This document shows positions 28,792 to 38,800 of a DNA stretch of 64,000 nucleotides, in pieces. The DNA is from an uncultured Chloroflexia bacterium. GTDB taxonomy: Bacteria; Chloroflexota; Limnocylindria; Limnocylindrales; CSP1-4. The notes below the pieces were generated by a model that saw only the letters and a program-made list of their open reading frames with translations, searched no databases and was not told the origin of the DNA. Where the stretch lies: contig CAVURB010000002.1 in NCBI GenBank assembly GCA_963743815.1, forward strand, positions 9,008 to 73,007, read 5' to 3'. A program made the translations under genes and the position numbers. The first letter of the stretch is position 1; the number at the start of each line of letters is the position of its first letter.

Positions 28792-28820
28792 TTGGCAGAA
28801 GCCCGGGGCGGTGGTAGCCT
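28792..28820 (+). promoter_or_regulatory. ftsEX promoter
   Basis: TTGGCA-N17-TAGCCT with extended TG. Confidence 0.55.
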
Positions 28821-28830
28821 CGGGTCCGAC

Positions 28831-29701
28831 GTGGCTCCCCCAGCCGTGCCCGCGGACGGAGCTCGAACGACCGGAGTCGGTGGCGACCGTCGTCGCCTCG
28901 ATGACTCCCCCGCGGAGTGGCCAGTGACCATCGCCCCCGCGCCGTCGCCGGCGCGCTCCCTTCGACGCCGCCTCCTGGATCGCGGTCGCGACCAGGCCGG
29001 GCAGGAACGCGCCGTCCTCGTGCTGCATGACGTCACCAAGCAGTACCCCAACGGGAAGATCGCACTGCGCGACGTGGACCTGGTCATCCCCGAGGGCGAC
29101 TTCGTGTTCCTCGTCGGGCCGTCCGGTGCCGGCAAGTCCACGCTCATCAAGCTGCTCATCCGCGACGAGATCGCGACACGCGGCGACGTCGTGCTGGACG
29201 GCCAGGACCTGGCCCGGCTACCCCGCCGCCAGGTCCCGCGGATGCGCCGCAAGATCGGGATCATCTTCCAGGACTTCAAGCTGTTGCCGACCAAGACCGT
29301 ATGGGAGAACGTGGCGTTCGCCCTGGAGGTGACCGGTCATCCGCGCCGCCAGATCCGTCCCGCGGTCGATCGGGTGCTCGCGATCGTCGGCCTCACGGCG
29401 CAGGCGAAGCAGATCCCCTCGCAGCTTTCGGGCGGCGAGCAGCAGCGGACCGCCATCGCCCGGGCGCTCGTCCACGATCCGCGGCTGATCATCGCGGACG
29501 AACCGACCGGGCAACCTGGATCCGCTCATCAGCTGGGAGATCCTGCAGCTGCTGCTGCGCATCAACGAGCTGGGCGTCACGGTCCTGATGGCGACCCACA
29601 ACGCGGATGTCGTGACCGCCCTGCGCCGGCGCGTGGTCGCCCTCGAGGAGGGCCGGATCATCCGCGACGAGGTCGGTGGCGCCTACCACCGCGAGGATTG
29701 A
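28831..29701 (+). CDS. ftsE: Cell-division ABC ATPase FtsE; N-terminal extension or uncertain start; frameshift near 29510
   Basis: [35 protein letters not shown]; precedes ftsX. Confidence 0.93.
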
Positions 29702-29705
29702 CGCG

Positions 29706-30591
29706 GTGATCACGTTCGTCGTCTTCAGCATCCGGCGGGCCTGGCAGGGCTTCTGGCGCAACGCGGTCATGAGCCTCGCCGCGACCGCGACGATGGTCCT
29801 GATGCTCCTCCTGCTCGCCGGGTTCTGGATCATCCAGACCGGACTGCTGGCCGGCCTGGAGTTCACGGAGCAGAAGGTCGAGGTCGTCGCGTACCTGCAG
29901 CCCAACGCGACCGAGAGTCAGGTCGAAGCGCTCCAGCGCGATCTCGAGGCCATGCCCGAGGTCCAGGAGGTGGTCTACGTCACGCGGGACGACGCGCTCG
30001 TGCGCTTCCGCGAATCGATGGAGGCGCAAGGTCGTGAGGACCTCACCCAGTACCTCGAGAGCAACCCGCTCTTCGCCAGCCTCGAGGTCAAGTTCGTCGA
30101 ACCGACCGGGATCGCGGTGGTCAGCGACGTCCTGCAGGCGGACGGGGCGGTCCGCAACGTCATCAACATCGAGGACCTCGTGGACCGGGTGCTCACCGTC
30201 ACGAACGTCCTGCGGACCGCCGGCACGGTCCTGTTGATCATCGTCGGGGTCATCTGCCCTGTTCATCATCGTCAACACGATCCGCCTCGCCGTCTTCGCG
30301 CGAGCCGAGGAGATCGAGATCATGCGGCTCGTCGGCGCGTCCGACGCGTTCATCCGTTGGCCGTTCGTGTTCGAGGGCGCCTTCGTCGGCTTCCTGGGTG
30401 CCGCGATCACGCTGGCCGTGCTGGCCGCCGCGGCAGAGCCGCTGAGCGGCTTCATGGTCGAGTTCTTCCGGATCCTCCCGCTCGAGGTCGGGTCGCTCAC
30501 GCGTGACCTCGTCGCGCTGGTGATGGGCGCCGGGGTGGGGCTCGGGATCGTCGGTTCCTGGGTATCGGTCCGGACCTACCTGATCCGCTAG
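29706..30591 (+). CDS. ftsX: Cell-division permease FtsX; frameshift near 30255
   Basis: FWRNAVMS, EEIEIMRLVGASDAFIRWPFVFEG. Confidence 0.93.
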
Positions 30592-30605
30592 CGAGCGGCG
30601 ATCGC

Positions 30606-32020
30606 GTGGACGGCTCCGACGAAGGACTCGATGTACCCTTGGCGCCCGCCACCGAGGAACCCCATCGCGTGATCGAGCCGCCCGCGATCCGACCAGCCGC
30701 CCCCGAGCCGCCGCGGTCCCGGTCGCACCGGTCGCGCCGGCCACCGCCACGACGCCGGGTCGTCGCGTGCCCATCCTGCCGATCTCGATCGCGCTCGTCG
30801 CCCTGCTCGCGGGTGGCGCCCTGTTCATGTCGGGCTACTCGATGGGTCGCCAGACCGCCGCCGAACCCGGCACGCCGGTCAGCGACGAGGAGGCGTTCCG
30901 GCCGTTCTGGGACACGTATCACACCATCAACGAGCGCTACGCCGGTGGCGAGGTGGATCGCGACGCGCTCGTCCAGGGGGCCATCCGCGGGATGATCGAG
31001 TCGCTGGAGGACCCGTACTCGTCCTACCTCACCTCCGACGAGTACCGCGAGAGCCTCCAGGGCATCAGCGGCGAGTTCGAGGGCATCGGCGCGGAGATCG
31101 CGACGGAGGCATCCGACGGCACGCAGGGGTGCGCGACGCTGGGCGCGGATTGCCGGCTCGTCATCGTCGCGCCGCTCGATGGGTCGCCGGCCGAGGCGGG
31201 CGGCCTGCTGGCCGGCGACCTGATCCTCGCCGTGGACGGGGTCCCGCTGGACGGCCTCGAGCGTGGACGGCGCGCGCGATCGGATCCGCGGGCCCAAGGG
31301 GTCGGTCGTCGTGCTCACGGTCCAGCGCGACGACGACGAGCCGTTCGCCGTCGAACTCACCCGCGATGTCATCCGCTCGCAGGAGGTCGAGTCCGAGACC
31401 TACGCGGACGGCGATGTCGGCTACGTCCGGTTGAACGGCTTCTCCGACCGCGGCGCCATCGACCTGGAAACGGCGGTGCAGGCGCACGTGGATGCCGGCC
31501 GAACGCAAGCTCATCCTGGACCTGCGCGGCAACCCCGGCGGGTACGTGACGGCCGCGCGCGACGTGGCCAGCGAGTTCATCGCCACGGGCCCGGTGTTCT
31601 GGGAGGAGGAGGCGGACGGCGTGCAGGTCCCGACCGACGCGGTGCCCGGCGGGGTCGCGACCGACCCAGCCATCACCGTCGTGTGCCTGATCGACGGCGG
31701 CAGCGCGTCGGCGAGCGAGATCGTCGCGGGCGCCCTGCAGGACACGGGCCGGGCCGACGCTCGTCGGGACGACGTCCTTCGGCAAGGGGACCGTCCAGCA
31801 GTGGCAGGAGCTCACGGGTGAGGGCGGGGCGTTCCGCCTGACGATCGCGAAGTGGCTGACCCCGGATCGCCGCTGGATCAACGACGTGGGGATCGAACCC
31901 GATGTCGTCGTGACGATCCCCGACGATGTCGCGGCCGGGGACGACCCGATCCTGGAGCGCGCCCTGGAGGTGCTCGCGGGCGAGGCCGGCGTCGGCACGC
32001 TGGAGCAGGTCGCGGCCTGA
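30606..32020 (+). CDS. S41 C-terminal processing peptidase with PDZ domain; frameshifts, start uncertain
   Basis: LEDPYSSYL, FEGIG, SPAEAGGL..GD, LDLRGNPGG, SASASEIVAGALQD, TIAKWLTP. Confidence 0.9.
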
Positions 32021-32302: not shown

Positions 32303-32331
32303 TCGGACACCCCTGTGGGTGGTAAGCAACT

Positions 32332-32361
32332 CGAACGCCGGCCCGCACGGGCCGGCGTTCG
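32332..32361 (+). terminator. Perfect 13-bp hairpin between the small ORF and smpB
   Basis: CGAACGCCGGCCC gcac GGGCCGGCGTTCG; weak U-tract. Confidence 0.65.
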
Positions 32362-32438
32362 TGCGCCACGACCCCAGCGCCCCGATCCGGTGCCATCGGA
32401 CGTGGGCACGATCCGACGAACGACCAAGGAGCCATCCC

Positions 32439-32903
32439 ATGCGCGACGATTCGACCGTCGCCGTCAATCGAAGAGCCCGCCACGAGTTCACGATCGACGA
32501 CACGTTCGAGGCTGGGCTCGTGCTGACCGGCACGGAGATCAAGTCGATCCGTGCCGGCAAGGCGAACATCGCCAACGCCTACGCGCGCATCGAGCGCGGT
32601 GAGGCGTGGCTGATCGGCGCGGACATCGCACCGTTCGAGCAGGGCAATCGATACAACCACGACCCCAAGCGGACGCGGAAGCTGCTCCTGCATCGCAAGC
32701 AGATCGACGAACTCCTGGGCCGTGCCAAGGCCAAGGGCCAGACGATCGTCCCGTTGCGGCTGTACATCACGCGCGGCAAGGCGAAGGTGGAACTCGGCCT
32801 CGCGCGCGGCAAGCAGCTGCATGACAAGCGACGCGACATCGCCGACCGTGATGCCAAGCGGGACATCGCACGGCAGATGGCGGATACCCAGCGCGGTCGG
32901 TAG
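32439..32903 (+). CDS. smpB: SsrA-binding protein SmpB
   Basis: NRRARHEF, EAGLVLTGTEIKSIR, RKLLLHRKQI, GKQLHDKR. Confidence 0.98.
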   Translation: MRDDSTVAVNRRARHEFTIDDTFEAGLVLTGTEIKSIRAGKANIANAYARIERGEAWLIGADIAPFEQGNRYNHDPKRTRKLLLHRKQIDELLGRAKAKGQTIVPLRLYITRGKAKVELGLARGKQLHDKRRDIADRDAKRDIARQMADTQRGR

Positions 32904-32925: not shown

Positions 32926-34597
32926 CTAGCGGAGCAGGTACCGACGGCTGAGCGGGACCTCCGCGACCGGTTCGATCTTCAGCGGACGTCCATCGAGCGA
33001 GACCCGACCGTCGCACGACGTCCACATCGATGGCTGGGGCAGACCGGTTGAGCGCCAGATCCGACCTCGTGAGCCCGCGCGTCCCACGAACGCCGATGAC
33101 CGATCGCCCGTGCGCCGCGAAACCCGGCGACCGCGCCGCCGCGACCGACGCCGAGACGAACACCGCCGAGAGCGATGCGGCCGCGCCCCCGGATCCCCCC
33201 CAATCGGCGCGATAGCGGGTCGGCTCCGCGCCTTCGACCGTGGCGTTGCCCTCGCCGAGGGGGCCCCACGCGGGTACCCCGCCCTTGAAGACGAGCGCCG
33301 GCTTGACGCCGAAGTAGGCGGGCTCCCAAAGCACGATGTCGGCCAGGCGGCCGGCCTGCAGCGACCCGACGTGGTCAGCGATGCCGTGCGTGATCGCCGG
33401 CTCGATCGTGACCTTGGCGAGGTAGCGCAGGACCCGTTCGGTCGCGTCGTACGGATCGTTCGACGTGGCCGTCCCCTCCCAGCTCGACATCACGTGCGCC
33501 AGCTGGAACGTCCGACGGACGGTCTCCATCATCCGGCCCATCCCCTGCGAGTCCGAGTTGACGATCGCGATGGCGCCCAGTTCGTGCAGCGGGCCCTCGG
33601 CGGCCATCGTGGCGGCGTGGACCCGCTCCTCGACCAGGGCCAGGTCCTCCGCCACGCCGAACGACGCGCCGTGGTTGAGGATGATCATCGGGACCTGTTC
33701 GGCCACGGCGTTCACGCCGAACGGCACGGTCGGGGTCGTCGAGGAACAGATGATGTTGGGCTCGCGGACCAGCCCGATGGCATCGGGGACGTGCCCGCCG
33801 CCGCTTCCCTCCACGTGATAGGCGTGGACCGTCCGTCCGTCGATCGCGGCGACGGTGTCCTCGAGTTCGGCGCTCTCGTGGAGGCCGTCGGTATGGAGCG
33901 AGACCGATACGTCGTGCTCGTCGGCGAACCGCAGCGTGTGGTCGATCAACCCGGGATCCGCGCCGTAGTCCTCGTGGATCTTGAACCCGCAGGCCCCGGC
34001 CTCCAGCAGGCGGGCGAGCGACCCGTCGTCCTCCGCGCGGGCGCAGGCCTGCAGGCCGATGTTCAGGGGCCAGTCGGCGGTCGCGGCGAACGTCCGCTCC
34101 ATCGCCCAGGGCGGTTCCTCGAATCCGGCGGTGATCAACGTCGTCACCCCGCCCGACAGCGCGGCGGGCAGCAGGCCCGGTGAGATGAGGTGGACGTGGC
34201 TGTCGACCGCCCCCGGCGTCGCGATCAGCCCGTACCCCATGAACGGCTCGGTGTGCGGTCCGATGGGCAGCTCGATCCCGTCGCTGATCTGCTCGTTGCC
34301 GGCCCGACCGACCCCCACGATCCGCCCGTCCTTGATCCCGATATCGGCCTTGATGGCACCGAGCAGCGGGTCCAGCACGAGGACACCCGCGATGACGGCG
34401 TCGAGTTCCGAGGCCGACGACCCACCCTGGGTCGAGCGGGGCCGCAGCGTCTTCGCATAACCCCAGATCGGCTCGTCGCCGGGGGCCTGCCGGTCCTCCG
34501 CGACACGGATCCACAGGTCGGTGTCGCCCAGGCGGACGCGGTCGCCCGTCGTGGGGCCGTAGCGGGCGAGCGACTCCTCGGGGGAGAGTCGGGTCAT
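32926..34597 (-). CDS. ureC: Urease alpha-subunit homolog (divergent); frameshift near 33025
   Basis: YGPTTGDRVRLGDTDL, DSHVH, GFKIHEDYG, HTD, HVEGSGGGHVPD, SDSQGMGR. Confidence 0.88.
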
Positions 34598-35206
34598 CGG
34601 GACGGGCCCCGGTCGTCGTCCCCGCCGGCGCCGCCGTAGCGCACCAGCCGGACGGTCCGCGTTTCGCCGGGCGACCATCGCTCGGTGGAGCCGGCCGGCA
34701 GGTCCAGGTGGCGGCCACGCGCGGCATCGCGATCGAAGACGAGGCGCTCGTTCACGCGATGGAACGGATGGTGTGACGAGACGCGGACGACGCGGGCGGA
34801 CGTACTCGTCACTTCGAGATCGACCCTGTCGCCCGGGTCCTCGTCGATCGCGCCCGACGTCTCCGGTGGGGCGACGGACCGTTCCCGGGTCATCGTCGCC
34901 CGGTGGTCCGAGCGGCTCCAGGAGCACGACGAGCCGGACCCCGTCGTCCATGAGCACCTCCAGCCGGACATCGCCGACCAGGGCAGCCACCCCGGGGAGC
35001 ACCTGGTCAACGGTGACAGCGCCGCGACCGGCCGCTTCCACCTCGGCGTAGCTCACGCCGGCCCGGGCCGCCTCCAGCATCGCGTCGCAGATGAGTGCGA
35101 CGGCCTCCGGGGCGTTGAGGAGCAGTCCGCGGTCACGATGTCGCCGGGCGAGCTCCGCGGCCGTGAAGATGAGGAGTCGTTCCTCCTCCCACGCGGTCAG
35201 CCGCAT
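34594..35206 (-). CDS. ureAB: Fused urease gamma-beta subunit; one frameshift near 34855
   Basis: MRLTAWEEERLL..LNAPEAVALI gamma domain, then SSHHPFHRVNERLVFDRDAARGRHLDLPAG..PGE beta domain; no stop or separate N-terminus between them. Confidence 0.8.
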
Positions 35207-35218
35207 CGGATGTCGCGA

Positions 35219-36111
35219 TCAGCGCCGCGCGAGCCAGATGACGAGGCCGTTCAGGGTCGCGATGTAGGCGACGAGGAGGAGCAGGATGATGGTCAGGATC
35301 CACAGGTACCCATCCAGGCGGGCGTTGGCCTGGTCGAGGCGGACCTGCGCCTCGTCCAGTCGCGTCTGGATACGACCGCCGAGATCGGCGACCCCATCGA
35401 TCGCTCCCCGCAGGTTGGTCGCACCCTCGACGATCCGCTCCACGGCGATGCCCGCGACACCAGCCTCGCGGAGCCGGCTCACGTTGTCGTCGAACTGCTG
35501 GAGCCTGGCGTCAAGGGCGGCCAGTTCCTCGGTCGGCAGCGTGGGCAGGTCGATGAACGGGACGAGGCTGGCGACCTGGCGGACGGTCTCGAGGCCCGAC
35601 TCGACGCGCGCCCGCAACTCGGCGAACTGGTTTCGGACCGCGTCGTAGCGATCGGCGATGGTCGCCGCTCGAGCGGCGAGTGCGGGCGGGATGTTGGCAC
35701 CCGGCATGATCGCCGACATATTCGCGATGAAGTCGTCGATGTCGGTGACGCGCTCCTGGACGCGGTCGGTCGCCAGTTCCACGATCGTCGAGCCTCGCTC
35801 GATCTGCCGATCGGCGGACTCGAACACGCCGCCGATGGAGTCGGAGATCCAGCCGTGGACGAGGAGGATCCCGATGGCGAGCACGGCGCAGACCACGAGC
35901 CCGACCACGCCCAGCGACCTGGGCCGCCGCGCGGGTCTTGCGCCGACCGCGCTCCGGTGCCGGCACGGCCGGGCCGCGGCGTCATCCGCGGCGTCTGCCG
36001 TCGGCGTCTTCCGCGGCGGCGGCCGTCGACTTCGGGGTCGGCGAGGGGCGCCTCCGCGTCCGATCCCGTCGCGTCGTTCACCTCCGGGTTCGGTCCTTTA
36101 TCGGTCGTCAT
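35219..36111 (-). CDS. Hypothetical membrane protein: two TM segments flanking a helical/coiled-coil domain; frameshift near 35950
   Basis: VGLVVCAVLAIGILLV and YLWILTIILLLLVAYIATLNGLVIW; ends 13 nt before ureAB. Confidence 0.7.
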
Positions 36112-36152
36112 CACTCAGCCCTCGTACCCTGCGCCTGCATTGCCCGCCAAGC

Positions 36153-37404
36153 CTAGCGGTGCGCGGCGATGACCGTTCGTCGCGCAGGGACGGGCGCGAG
36201 CTCCCAGGCTCGCGTCTCCACCGGGACACCCGGACGGGCACGGAAGAACAGGATCGACCCCGACCCCGGACACGGCGGCACAGAGCAGCAGACCGGCCGT
36301 CACGTCCACGATCCCGGCCTGGAGGAGGGCGCTCATCGAGAACGCGGCCACGATGCCGCGGGCCCCGGTGATCGCATTCCAGCCGGCCATCGCGGCCGCA
36401 CGCGAAGCCAGGGTCGTCTGCTCGGAGATGACGGAGGCGATCCCGACATCGATGGACGCGCCAGCGACGCCGCCCGCGAGTGCGGCGATCCACAGGACCG
36501 CGAACTCGGGCGCGACCGCATAGGCCAGCAACGAGGTCAGGCCCAGCAGGCTCCCCACGCGCATCGCGACCAGGGCACCCCAGCGATCGGTGACCGCCCC
36601 CCAGGCGAGGAACGCGACCGTCGTCGCGACGGCAGCGAGCAGGCCCAGGACGCCGACGTCGGCGAGCGTCAGGTCAAGTCGATCGACGTGGACCAGCGCG
36701 AAGAGCGGCGCGGCCGCGATGAGGCCCCCACCGTAGAACCCCTGCGCCATGGCGACGCGGGCCAGCGTGGGGCGTTCGCGGAGAGCGCGGATGGACCCGC
36801 GCGCCGAGAACGGCGGCGGCGCTGCAGCAGATGGCGCTCGGAGTCCGGCGAACCCGATCGCCGCCACCAATCCCACGATGCCGGCCAGGGCGACGGCGGT
36901 CTCGCCACCGAGCCGATCGGCCACGATCCCCCCGATCAGGACGGCGACCGCACCGGCTGCGGCTCGACCCATCCCCAGCACGCCGACGATGCGCCCCCGA
37001 AGACGCGACGGGTACATCGCGCCCCACAGGCGCAGGTGGAACGGGCCACCGAGCGACAGGCTGAGCCAGAAGACGATCGCCACGGCGACCATGACCGCGG
37101 GTGTCGGGAACAGGACCAGCAGGATGAGCGTGGCTGCCCCGCCGCCGCGCATCAGCGCCAGCCCGAACGGGGATCGGGGGCCAACGCGACCCGCGAACAT
37201 CCCGAGCAGGTTGGCGATGAACGGCGCCGAGGCGAGGGCCGCCAGACCGATGGGCTCGAGGCCACCGCGGCGGGCGATCGTGGGAAGGAGGGCGCCGACC
37301 AGGGCCATGGTCACCCCGATCCCGACGGCAGCGACCAGGTCGAGGGCGAGGTTGCGCCCGACCGCGCGCCGATTCGGAGATGGTTGGAGTGACGGCCGGA
37401 GCAC
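36153..37404 (-). CDS. MFS transporter; frameshift near the C-terminus
   Basis: About 12 hydrophobic segments; LWGAMYPSRLRGRIVG, WGAVTDRWG motif A-like. Confidence 0.85.
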
Positions 37405-37548
37405 AGGTACCTCGTAACAGCCCTGCGGCCTGCGAGGTGAGCTGTCGGGCTCGGCGTGGGTCCGCCGTCGCGGTGGGTCCGCGATTCGCCCCGGAAGGTG
37501 GGTCCCCCGTCCTCGGATGAGGAGGTTCGGCCACGGACAACGATACCA

Positions 37549-38424: not shown

Positions 38425-38800
38425 GGGGATGCGTGGTTTCGACAGGGCTTGGCTGTCGGGGAGTGCGAGCCGGGGATGCTGCTCAGGCCCCGTCAACAAG
38501 GCAGCAAAACGAAGTACCTGGCAACCGCCAGTCGACTCTCGCCCTCGCTGCTTAGGCAGTAAGGTGAGCGTGGAAGCTACCTCCGCTTCGCGGGTAGTGG
38601 AAGCGTCATGCAGCGAAGCTGCGATCCGGATGAGCGTCGCGTAGTCCGGAGTCAAGCCCGATCTAGGGGCACGTGACTGGACCGCCCGACAGGGTGCCGA
38701 TGTTCGTTCGGGCGGTCGACGACAAACCATCGGACACGCTCGTAGTGGTCCCCGGCGAAGGGTTCTGGACGGGGAGTTCGACTCTCCCCCATCTCCACCA
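38425..38800 (+). ncRNA. ssrA: tmRNA; tag peptide (A)GNRQSTLALAA
   Basis: 5' GGGGATGCGTGGTTTCGAC, 3' GAGTTCGACTCTCCCCCATCTCCACCA; tag ORF at 38520-38555; TGgTAGCAT -10 at 38384-38392. Confidence 0.96.

Follow-up and report, generated by a model that had tools for sequence, protein, structure and literature searches.

What does an enzyme do that keeps the fold and the metal ligands of urease when the genes for urease maturation are missing and the wall of the urea pocket has been cut away? Urease is the textbook nickel enzyme, and maturation by UreDEFG is held to be near-obligatory. The question is raised by a two-gene locus, ureAB followed by ureC, on the minus strand (35206-32926) of a stretch of 64,000 nucleotides, here called the window, from an uncultured Chloroflexia bacterium of the order Limnocylindrales (assembly GCA_963743815.1, contig CAVURB010000002.1, positions 9,008 to 73,007). 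The results presented here point to a chaperone-independent urease-fold amidohydrolase that would act on N-carbamoyl amines, for example N-carbamoylputrescine, rather than on plain urea; the probability of this reading is put at about 0.5.

The structural genes are matched by all four of the Pfam families Urease_gamma, Urease_beta, Urease_alpha and Amidohydro_1. The first gene, ureAB (34594-35206, minus strand), encodes a fused gamma/beta subunit, with the gamma domain at 35206-34910 (94.8 bits) and the beta domain at about 34830-34627 (71.9 bits). It starts with ATG at 35206, and its TGA stop (34596-34594) overlaps the ATG of ureC within ATGA (34597-34594). The bifunctional gamma/beta model NF009671 is the top NCBIfam match for both halves. 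The beta domain stops right after LVRYGG (34594-34640) and is about 20 residues shorter at its C terminus than canonical UreB; the NCBIfam match of this half runs only to position 196 of 231. The second gene, ureC (32926-34597, minus strand, stop TAG at 32928-32926), encodes a urease-alpha-like catalytic subunit of about 556 residues once the reading frame is restored, compared with 551-560 residues in relatives. UreC scores 110 bits with Urease_alpha and 136 bits with Amidohydro_1. The sequence-only reading had placed the locus at the correct coordinates and had reported no ureD, ureE, ureF or ureG in the operon; indeed, the upstream genes encode a 229-residue protein without a Pfam match and a major facilitator superfamily (MFS) transporter. 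The fusion of ureAB, and two changes of reading frame discussed below, had been overlooked.

The catalytic site is intact. Alignment to ureases of the Protein Data Bank (PDB) with HMMER pairs all six metal ligands, which span 33551-34198 on the minus strand, with those of Helicobacter pylori UreB: H134 with H136 (codon 34198-34196), H136 with H138 (34192-34190), K206 with K219 (33982-33980), H235 with H248 (33895-33893), H261 with H274 (33817-33815) and D349 with D362 (33553-33551). In Klebsiella aerogenes numbering these are H134, H136, K217, H246, H272 and D360. The equivalents of the catalytic residues H219, D221, H320 and R336 are H208 and D210, both within a KIHED motif, H309 in the flap and R325 after it. 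These four are invariant in all 198 members of the window's branch (68-93% identity), and so are the ligands, save H261, replaced in one member, and D349, replaced in two. The exceptions have Asn in place of the equivalents of His272 and Asp360, respectively, and may be sequencing errors or inactive variants. An AlphaFold2 model of UreC, built from an alignment of 38 sequences, retains the helix-turn-helix of the flap (predicted local distance difference test 78, predicted template modelling score 0.87). In a Foldseek search the model matched urease alpha chains with template modelling (TM) scores of 0.87-0.89, compared with about 0.5 for other amidohydrolases. The initial claim that the six ligands, H219 and the flap histidine survive is thus borne out by the alignment, and the structure model that had been suggested as a check shows that the urease fold is retained.

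Since every residue for urea hydrolysis other than the deleted loop is kept, urea may still be the substrate, and this weighs against a carbamoyl-amine hydrolase. The locus would then encode a genuine urease, with urea as its physiological substrate and a metal centre (Ni, Fe or other) that assembles itself without chaperones. In favour of a urease are the ligands together with the equivalents of H219, D221, H320 and R336, the presence of both the gamma and the beta subunit, and the score of UreC with the NCBIfam subfamily NF009686, 'urease subunit alpha' (589 bits, cut-off 354), a name that the sources also use. However, the urease equivalog TIGR01792 gives UreC 513 bits, below its cut-off of 680. 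This alternative is considered unlikely, although it carries real weight.

The pocket itself speaks against urea. Following VTTLI, the canonical loop GGGTGPAxGTxATTCTPGPW is replaced by TAGFEEPPW, leaving a remodelled loop, I155-W164 (ITAGFEEPPW; 34106-34135, minus strand), with a gap of 11 residues that removes the position of Ala167 in K. aerogenes and Ala170 in Sporosarcina pasteurii. The segment that bears the urea-binding carbonyl is therefore gone, and a strictly conserved acidic motif stands in its place: in both sub-clades A157, G158, F159, E161 and P162 never vary, and E160 and P163 hardly do. The flap, M304-F312 (MIILNHGASF; 33662-33688, minus strand), reads MIILNHG instead of the canonical MLMVCHH, such that C319-H320-H321 becomes N308-H309-G310. 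Within the branch, N308 is found in 197 of the 198 members (Thr in one) and the following His and Gly in all 198, whereas the flap of the sister clade is [AL]VHGG and that of the window's branch LNHGA. Both the clean 11-residue loss and the flap change (C319N, H321G) had been described from the sequence, and both are seen in the alignments to canonical ureases. For a genuine urease, the loop deletion and the flap changes would have to serve chaperone-free metal loading or tune kinetics, not specificity. As judged from the residues present, the opened pocket wall and the acidic Glu-Glu motif would, in chemical terms, be well matched to a ureido compound bearing a cationic tail. Against this, the placement of the Glu-Glu pair relative to the metals follows from alignment, and a planar cation such as guanidinium would likewise match an acidic loop.

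The deletion defines a clade. Homologues of 551-560 residues and 80-93% identity number in the thousands, and their sources call them 'urease subunit alpha'. Species genomes contribute 516 relatives, and the best 80 of these nearly all carry the label Chloroflexota or Ca. Limnocylindria/Limnocylindrales. In representatives at 50% identity the loop is either canonical, shortened by 4 residues or shortened by 10-11 residues. In three trees the 11-residue-deletion clade is monophyletic and contains the window's UreC, with support of 99-100 in the Shimodaira-Hasegawa-like approximate likelihood ratio test (SH-aLRT), as the sequence-only reading had proposed to examine. Its sister is the 10-residue form, and both nest within the 4-residue-deletion group, apart from canonical ureases. 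The 11-residue deletion and the acidic AGFEEPP loop are, by the alignments and trees, a shared derived trait of this branch. The window's locus displays the traits of the clade: fused ureAB followed by ureC, the ITAGFEEPP loop, an x-H-G flap and no adjacent accessory genes.

The wider family shows further variation. Seven proteins (P0155, P0174, P0189, P0195, P0202, P0216 and P0232) are full-length urease-alpha homologues with degenerate HxH ligands and flap (e.g., VDSNVH, VDCYAP); this group falls with the canonical ureases in the tree and may consist of pseudo-enzymes. In one locus of the 4-residue-deletion group (L157, 4000-11215), ureAB-ureC is flanked on one side by a class-III aminotransferase gene and on the other by an ectABCD cluster for ectoine/hydroxyectoine. 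A COG1574-type Amidohydro_3 gene recurs in the 11- and 4-residue groups, either directly upstream of ureAB or convergent after ureC (L100, 7573-9063; L156, 692-2287; downstream of ureC in L119 and L121), and may encode a second hydrolase of the same pathway.

The lack of maturation genes extends beyond the operon. The source genome has a single ureC, and UreD and UreF were not found in it, while the search for UreG returned only weak matches of the cobW family. Across the order, true UreG is present in 2 of 121 genomes, one of which (G115) has a canonical ureC beside UreG. In comparison, the non-canonical ureC occurs in about 35-36 of the 121, including one single-contig genome and several of two to five contigs. 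Given how rare true UreG is, with genomes of one or a few contigs among the ureC carriers, the absence of chaperones characterises the lineage and is not the result of an incomplete bin. The genome search for ureD, ureF and ureG that had been proposed from the sequence therefore ends with the accessory genes absent from nearly all related genomes. A canonical ureC is seen in only one genome of the order, so elsewhere the non-canonical enzyme would mostly be the sole urease, which favours urea as the substrate. However, true UrtA, of the urea ATP-binding cassette transporter, was found in none of the 121 genomes, which argues against a urease. The absence of UrtA from all of them is uninformative for the window's branch versus the rest, and UrtA was dropped as evidence on urea.

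The evidence for a different substrate comes from the gene context of relatives. Agmatine deiminase yields N-carbamoylputrescine, an N-substituted urea. Within the order it was found in 5 of the 121 genomes, each of which also has this urease-fold enzyme. In one (G117) the deiminase gene is divergent from ureAB at a distance of about 100 bp, and in another (G036) it is divergent from an operon of Amidohydro_3, ureAB and ureC. In the other three (G006, G058 and G114) the deiminase is elsewhere in the genome, and the only enzyme type is the smpB-linked one, as in the window. The linkage is also seen in the sister clade, for which 48 metagenome loci were collected by a scan with the sister representative P0123; the contigs of P0123, P0125 and P0127 themselves are short and of no use for gene context. 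In 19 of the 48 loci (L107, L109-L114, L116-L118, L120, L122, L123, L125, L134, L136, L141, L142 and L148), ureAB and ureC are separated by a PAD_porph gene (344-348 bits) in the same orientation, a few bases from either neighbour. These loci are on soil metagenome contigs of high GC content (68-74%), with near-zero gaps between the three genes and unrelated flanks. Since the flanks differ between loci, ureAB, the deiminase gene and ureC constitute a conserved unit. In two further sister-clade loci the deiminase gene is immediately upstream; the copies directly upstream or divergent are those in L144, L150, G117 and G036.

All deiminase-linked UreC proteins carry the same TTLITAGFEEPP loop as the window's enzyme and have the flap [AL]VHGG. 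The window's branch has the copy in G036 as its immediate sister (99 SH-aLRT), and the other linked copies are scattered over several places of the other branch. The deiminase linkage therefore brackets the window's branch. Since genes for relatives with precisely this loop share a transcription unit with agmatine deiminase, the pocket is most likely shaped for N-carbamoyl amines. The placement of the nearest relatives in agmatine deiminase operons, a pathway that yields no urea, also counts against a genuine urease. Of the sequence-only reading, the urease fold, the intact dinuclear site and the remodelled pocket stand, and its guess of a substituted urea as substrate gains comparative support from the deiminase operons of the sister lineage.

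Several observations weigh against carbamoyl amines as the substrate in the window's own branch. PF04371 has no match in the source genome, and there is no deiminase in the window. The enzyme of this branch never adjoins a deiminase gene, and about 31 of its 36 genomes are without any deiminase, which also favours a urease. With no deiminase in the genome, the carbamoyl amine would need to be imported. The flap differs from that of the deiminase-linked copies (V to N, G to A), and the difference coincides with the loss of linkage; going by these residues, the flap change could mark a change of substrate. Even in the sister clade, no deiminase is seen at several loci that have 6-kb flanks. With 300 bits, the deiminase homologues fall under the agmatine deiminase equivalog cut-off of 381.8, and so their own substrate is uncertain. 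In addition, almost every genome of the order has an AguB-like CN-hydrolase (about 270 bits, also below cut-off). Absence of the canonical second step is consequently not demonstrable, and the argument from a missing AguB was dropped.

The same observations allow for a third possibility, in which the window's branch gained a new function on leaving the deiminase context and changing its flap, and the amidohydrolase acts on a small nitrogen compound of another kind than urea or a carbamoyl amine. This could be guanidine, another guanidino compound, a carbamate ester, biuret, guanylurea or an amide. The coincidence of the V to N and G to A changes with the loss of linkage fits this possibility, as do the suitability of the acidic loop for guanidinium and the varied contexts of the wider non-canonical family, which include Amidohydro_3, Ntn-hydrolase, class-III aminotransferase and ectABCD genes. 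However, no gene context or regulatory element hints at any specific alternative. No guanidine riboswitch was found in the window, where the sole riboswitch belongs to the MFS module described below, and the deiminase-linked copies have the very same pocket loop. A substrate of this kind is thus regarded as quite improbable.

With a carbamoyl amine as the preferred substrate, the following mechanism can be proposed. The fused gamma-beta and alpha subunits would form a functional two-gene enzyme of a distinct branch of the urease family, in which the dinuclear metal centre, bridged by a carbamylated lysine, would assemble without UreD, UreE, UreF or UreG. The 11-residue deletion would open the wall of the urea pocket that normally bears the Ala167/170 carbonyl, and the Glu-Glu loop could hold the distal ammonium group of the substrate. 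As in urease, the ureido carbon would be attacked by a hydroxide bound to the metals; ammonia would be released together with the carbamate of the amine, and this carbamate would break down to the free amine and CO2. The window's sub-branch, with the LNHG flap and a location between ssrA and smpB, would descend from a deiminase-linked ancestor, and probably still hydrolyses the same or a closely related N-carbamoyl amine that is scavenged. The window's own branch may alternatively have shifted its substrate, or may use urea. The more sweeping proposal, that the whole 11-residue branch, this gene included, comprises chaperone-independent, probably nickel-free N-carbamoyl-amine amidohydrolases and not ureases, is tentative and falls short of an even chance.

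Two enzymes that act on the product of agmatine deiminase have been described, the N-carbamoylputrescine amidohydrolase AguB and putrescine carbamoyltransferase (PMC13625781). AguB catalyses the same reaction as proposed here, and its gene lies beside aguA much as ureAB and ureC lie beside the deiminase gene in the linked loci. However, AguB has the CN-hydrolase fold, shares no homology with the urease-fold enzyme and uses a Cys-Glu-Lys triad instead of a metal. A urease homologue acting at the N-carbamoylputrescine step was not found in the literature searched.

Comparison with known ureases places the enzyme in the family and apart from its described members. As canonical references we take the Ni-ureases of K. 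aerogenes (2KAU/1FWJ), S. pasteurii (4UBP) and H. pylori (1E9Y). Shared with canonical UreABC are the gamma, beta and alpha domains, the fold, about 40-45% identity in the alpha subunit, the metal ligands including the carbamylatable Lys, and the catalytic His, Asp and Arg. The window's enzyme differs in the 11-residue loop deletion, in the change of the flap from C-H-H to N-H-G and in the fusion of gamma and beta. It further differs in the motifs HTDGLHE, HVEGSGGGHVPD, CSSTTPT and NSDSQG and in the replacement of the second Arg of RIR by His. Compared with a complete UreABC and UreDEFG system, the source genome has no accessory genes that could be found, and UreC scores below the equivalog. 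Activity without dedicated accessory proteins is not unprecedented: the Fe-urease UreA2B2 of Helicobacter mustelae (3QGA) and UreABC of Bacillus subtilis are reportedly active without them. Both retain an undeleted pocket loop as well as the CHH flap. By alignment score they are ordinary ureases: UreC of the window is no closer to UreA2B2 (439 bits, TM 0.88) than to other PDB ureases, and in the trees its clade is a separate deep branch.

Clusters with only ure(AB)C were noticed in Streptomyces in 2008, namely SCO5525-5526 of S. coelicolor and a cluster in S. avermitilis (PMC2492869), and have been treated as urea-utilising genes (PMC3293853). Compared by cluster type alone, SCO5525-5526 resembles the locus in the window in being a two-gene cluster with a fused ureAB and no adjacent accessory genes. 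Unlike the source genome, which has only the non-canonical pair, Streptomyces has the ure(AB)C pair besides a full canonical cluster, arguing against redundancy in that related branch and hence against a simple urease (PMC2492869). A biochemical study of any ure(AB)C-only enzyme was not found in the literature searched.

A separate question is whether the locus is functional in this genome at all. Three-frame translation places ureA and ureC in one frame, ureB in another and the last 28 codons of ureC in a third. Relatives carry a single fused ureAB and a ureC tail that is in frame (80 related loci), with an intact fusion of 196 residues in L077 and L125; the window therefore has one extra base in the linker. 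By comparison with L008, this base is at about 34864, in the variable part of ureAB between the gamma and beta domains. By comparison with four relatives, there is another extra base at about 33016; it throws the final 28 codons of ureC, which read DGRVSLDGRPLKIEPVAEVPLSRRYLLR up to the stop, out of frame. If both shifts are real, ureAB and ureC would be pseudogenes undergoing decay. Two frame changes within 2.3 kb, and the patchy distribution of the gene (about 35-36 of 121 genomes of the order), which implies that losses happen, are in line with decay.

However, the neighbouring genes are just as affected. The genes ftsE, ftsX and ctpA, the last encoding a C-terminal protease, at 28800-31990 on the plus strand together have five frame changes. 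Relative to L029, a relative assembled from short reads, there are three in ctpA and one each in ftsX, ftsE, ureC and ureAB, making seven in 6.5 kb, and the sequence 3' of every change stays conserved in the shifted frame. The tail of ureC beyond the shift is 56-89% identical to relatives. The ure genes of the window have no stops or larger lesions, and the ratio of nonsynonymous to synonymous substitution rates (dN/dS) of ureC is 0.11 and 0.14 against its two closest relatives (0.11 against the closest), which is the mark of purifying selection. The source genome is 72% complete at 3.9 Mb in 19 contigs, compared with 88-95% for congeners of similar size, and many of its closest relatives are long-read metagenome-assembled genomes from soil. 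Because ftsE, ftsX and ctpA are equally dense in shifts and the downstream sequence is conserved, the two frameshifts in the ure genes are read as errors: most likely, on these alignments, consensus indel errors of a long-read assembly and not decay, which is very improbable. Signs of decay, which the sequence-only reading had held would count against a working enzyme, are accordingly not apparent. The assembly appears to carry roughly one indel error per kb across ftsE-ftsX-ctpA, and any pseudogene call in this genome therefore needs care.

The locus lies in a variable part of the chromosome. The transfer-messenger RNA gene ssrA (38425-38800, plus strand; Rfam RF00023, 108.7 bits) and smpB (32319-32903, plus strand; SmpB in Pfam, 199.5 bits) flank the ure(AB)C cassette, and the same bracket was seen in all eight relatives scanned in the order Ca. 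Limnocylindrales. The gap between ssrA and smpB holds a variable insert of 5-6 kb, composed of ure(AB)C with or without the MFS gene and its riboswitch plus small genes. On this comparison the slot behaves like an integration hot spot in this order.

The other genes of the slot do not appear to be partners of the enzyme. The gene 12 nucleotides upstream of ureAB (35219-35908, minus strand) encodes the 229-residue protein, a coiled-coil protein with a C-terminal transmembrane helix and no Pfam or NCBIfam match. Homologues occur in 9 of the 80 related loci and in none of the sister-clade loci, and given this sporadic occurrence the gene was rejected as part of the conserved unit. A relative with 25% identity beside the deiminase in G114 is probably a coincidence. 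The MFS gene (36115-37404, minus strand; MFS_1 in Pfam, 57 bits, no NCBIfam match), whose true start is uncertain, is preceded by a cyclic di-AMP riboswitch of the ydaO type as its leader (37412-37542, minus strand; Rfam RF00379, 64.9 bits, gathering score 38). The riboswitch always accompanies the MFS gene in relatives, even where the MFS gene is inverted, and the unit is conserved in Limnocylindrales. An MFS ortholog is present in 13 of the 121 genomes, four or five of them without ure(AB)C, and is missing from many ureC-positive genomes. Since the module is inverted or lost in some related loci and the ortholog occurs in ureC-negative genomes, MFS gene and riboswitch are an independent neighbour, and they were rejected as a clue to the substrate. 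Proline-racemase-family and LLM-type oxidoreductase genes lie between ureC and smpB in some relatives (L039, 9712-11591). These were also rejected as partners, being convergent to ureC, not co-transcribed and absent from the window. A scan of the operon for promoters and terminators gave nothing usable.

Finally, the results bear on how urease-like genes are understood in this lineage and beyond it. Clusters of ure(AB)C alone were already known; the clade-defining deletion in the pocket, the genome-wide lack of chaperones and the tie to agmatine deiminase operons are new. A large, conserved and soil-abundant branch of the family keeps the dinuclear site, drops the chaperones and rebuilds the wall that faces the substrate, and may serve as a natural experiment in how a pocket specific for urea comes to admit N-substituted ureas. 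In Chloroflexota and related metagenomes, the label 'urease subunit alpha' may therefore mislead on both substrate and metal in thousands of annotations, and the ureolysis potential of soils, as estimated from ureC counts, would then be overestimated. If the link to the deiminase is functional, polyamine and arginine catabolism would have a new enzyme at one of its steps. If the proposed activity is true, the enzyme would be the first of the urease fold whose physiological substrate is something other than urea, and would provide a third, non-homologous route, after AguB and putrescine carbamoyltransferase, from N-carbamoylputrescine to putrescine, ammonia and CO2.

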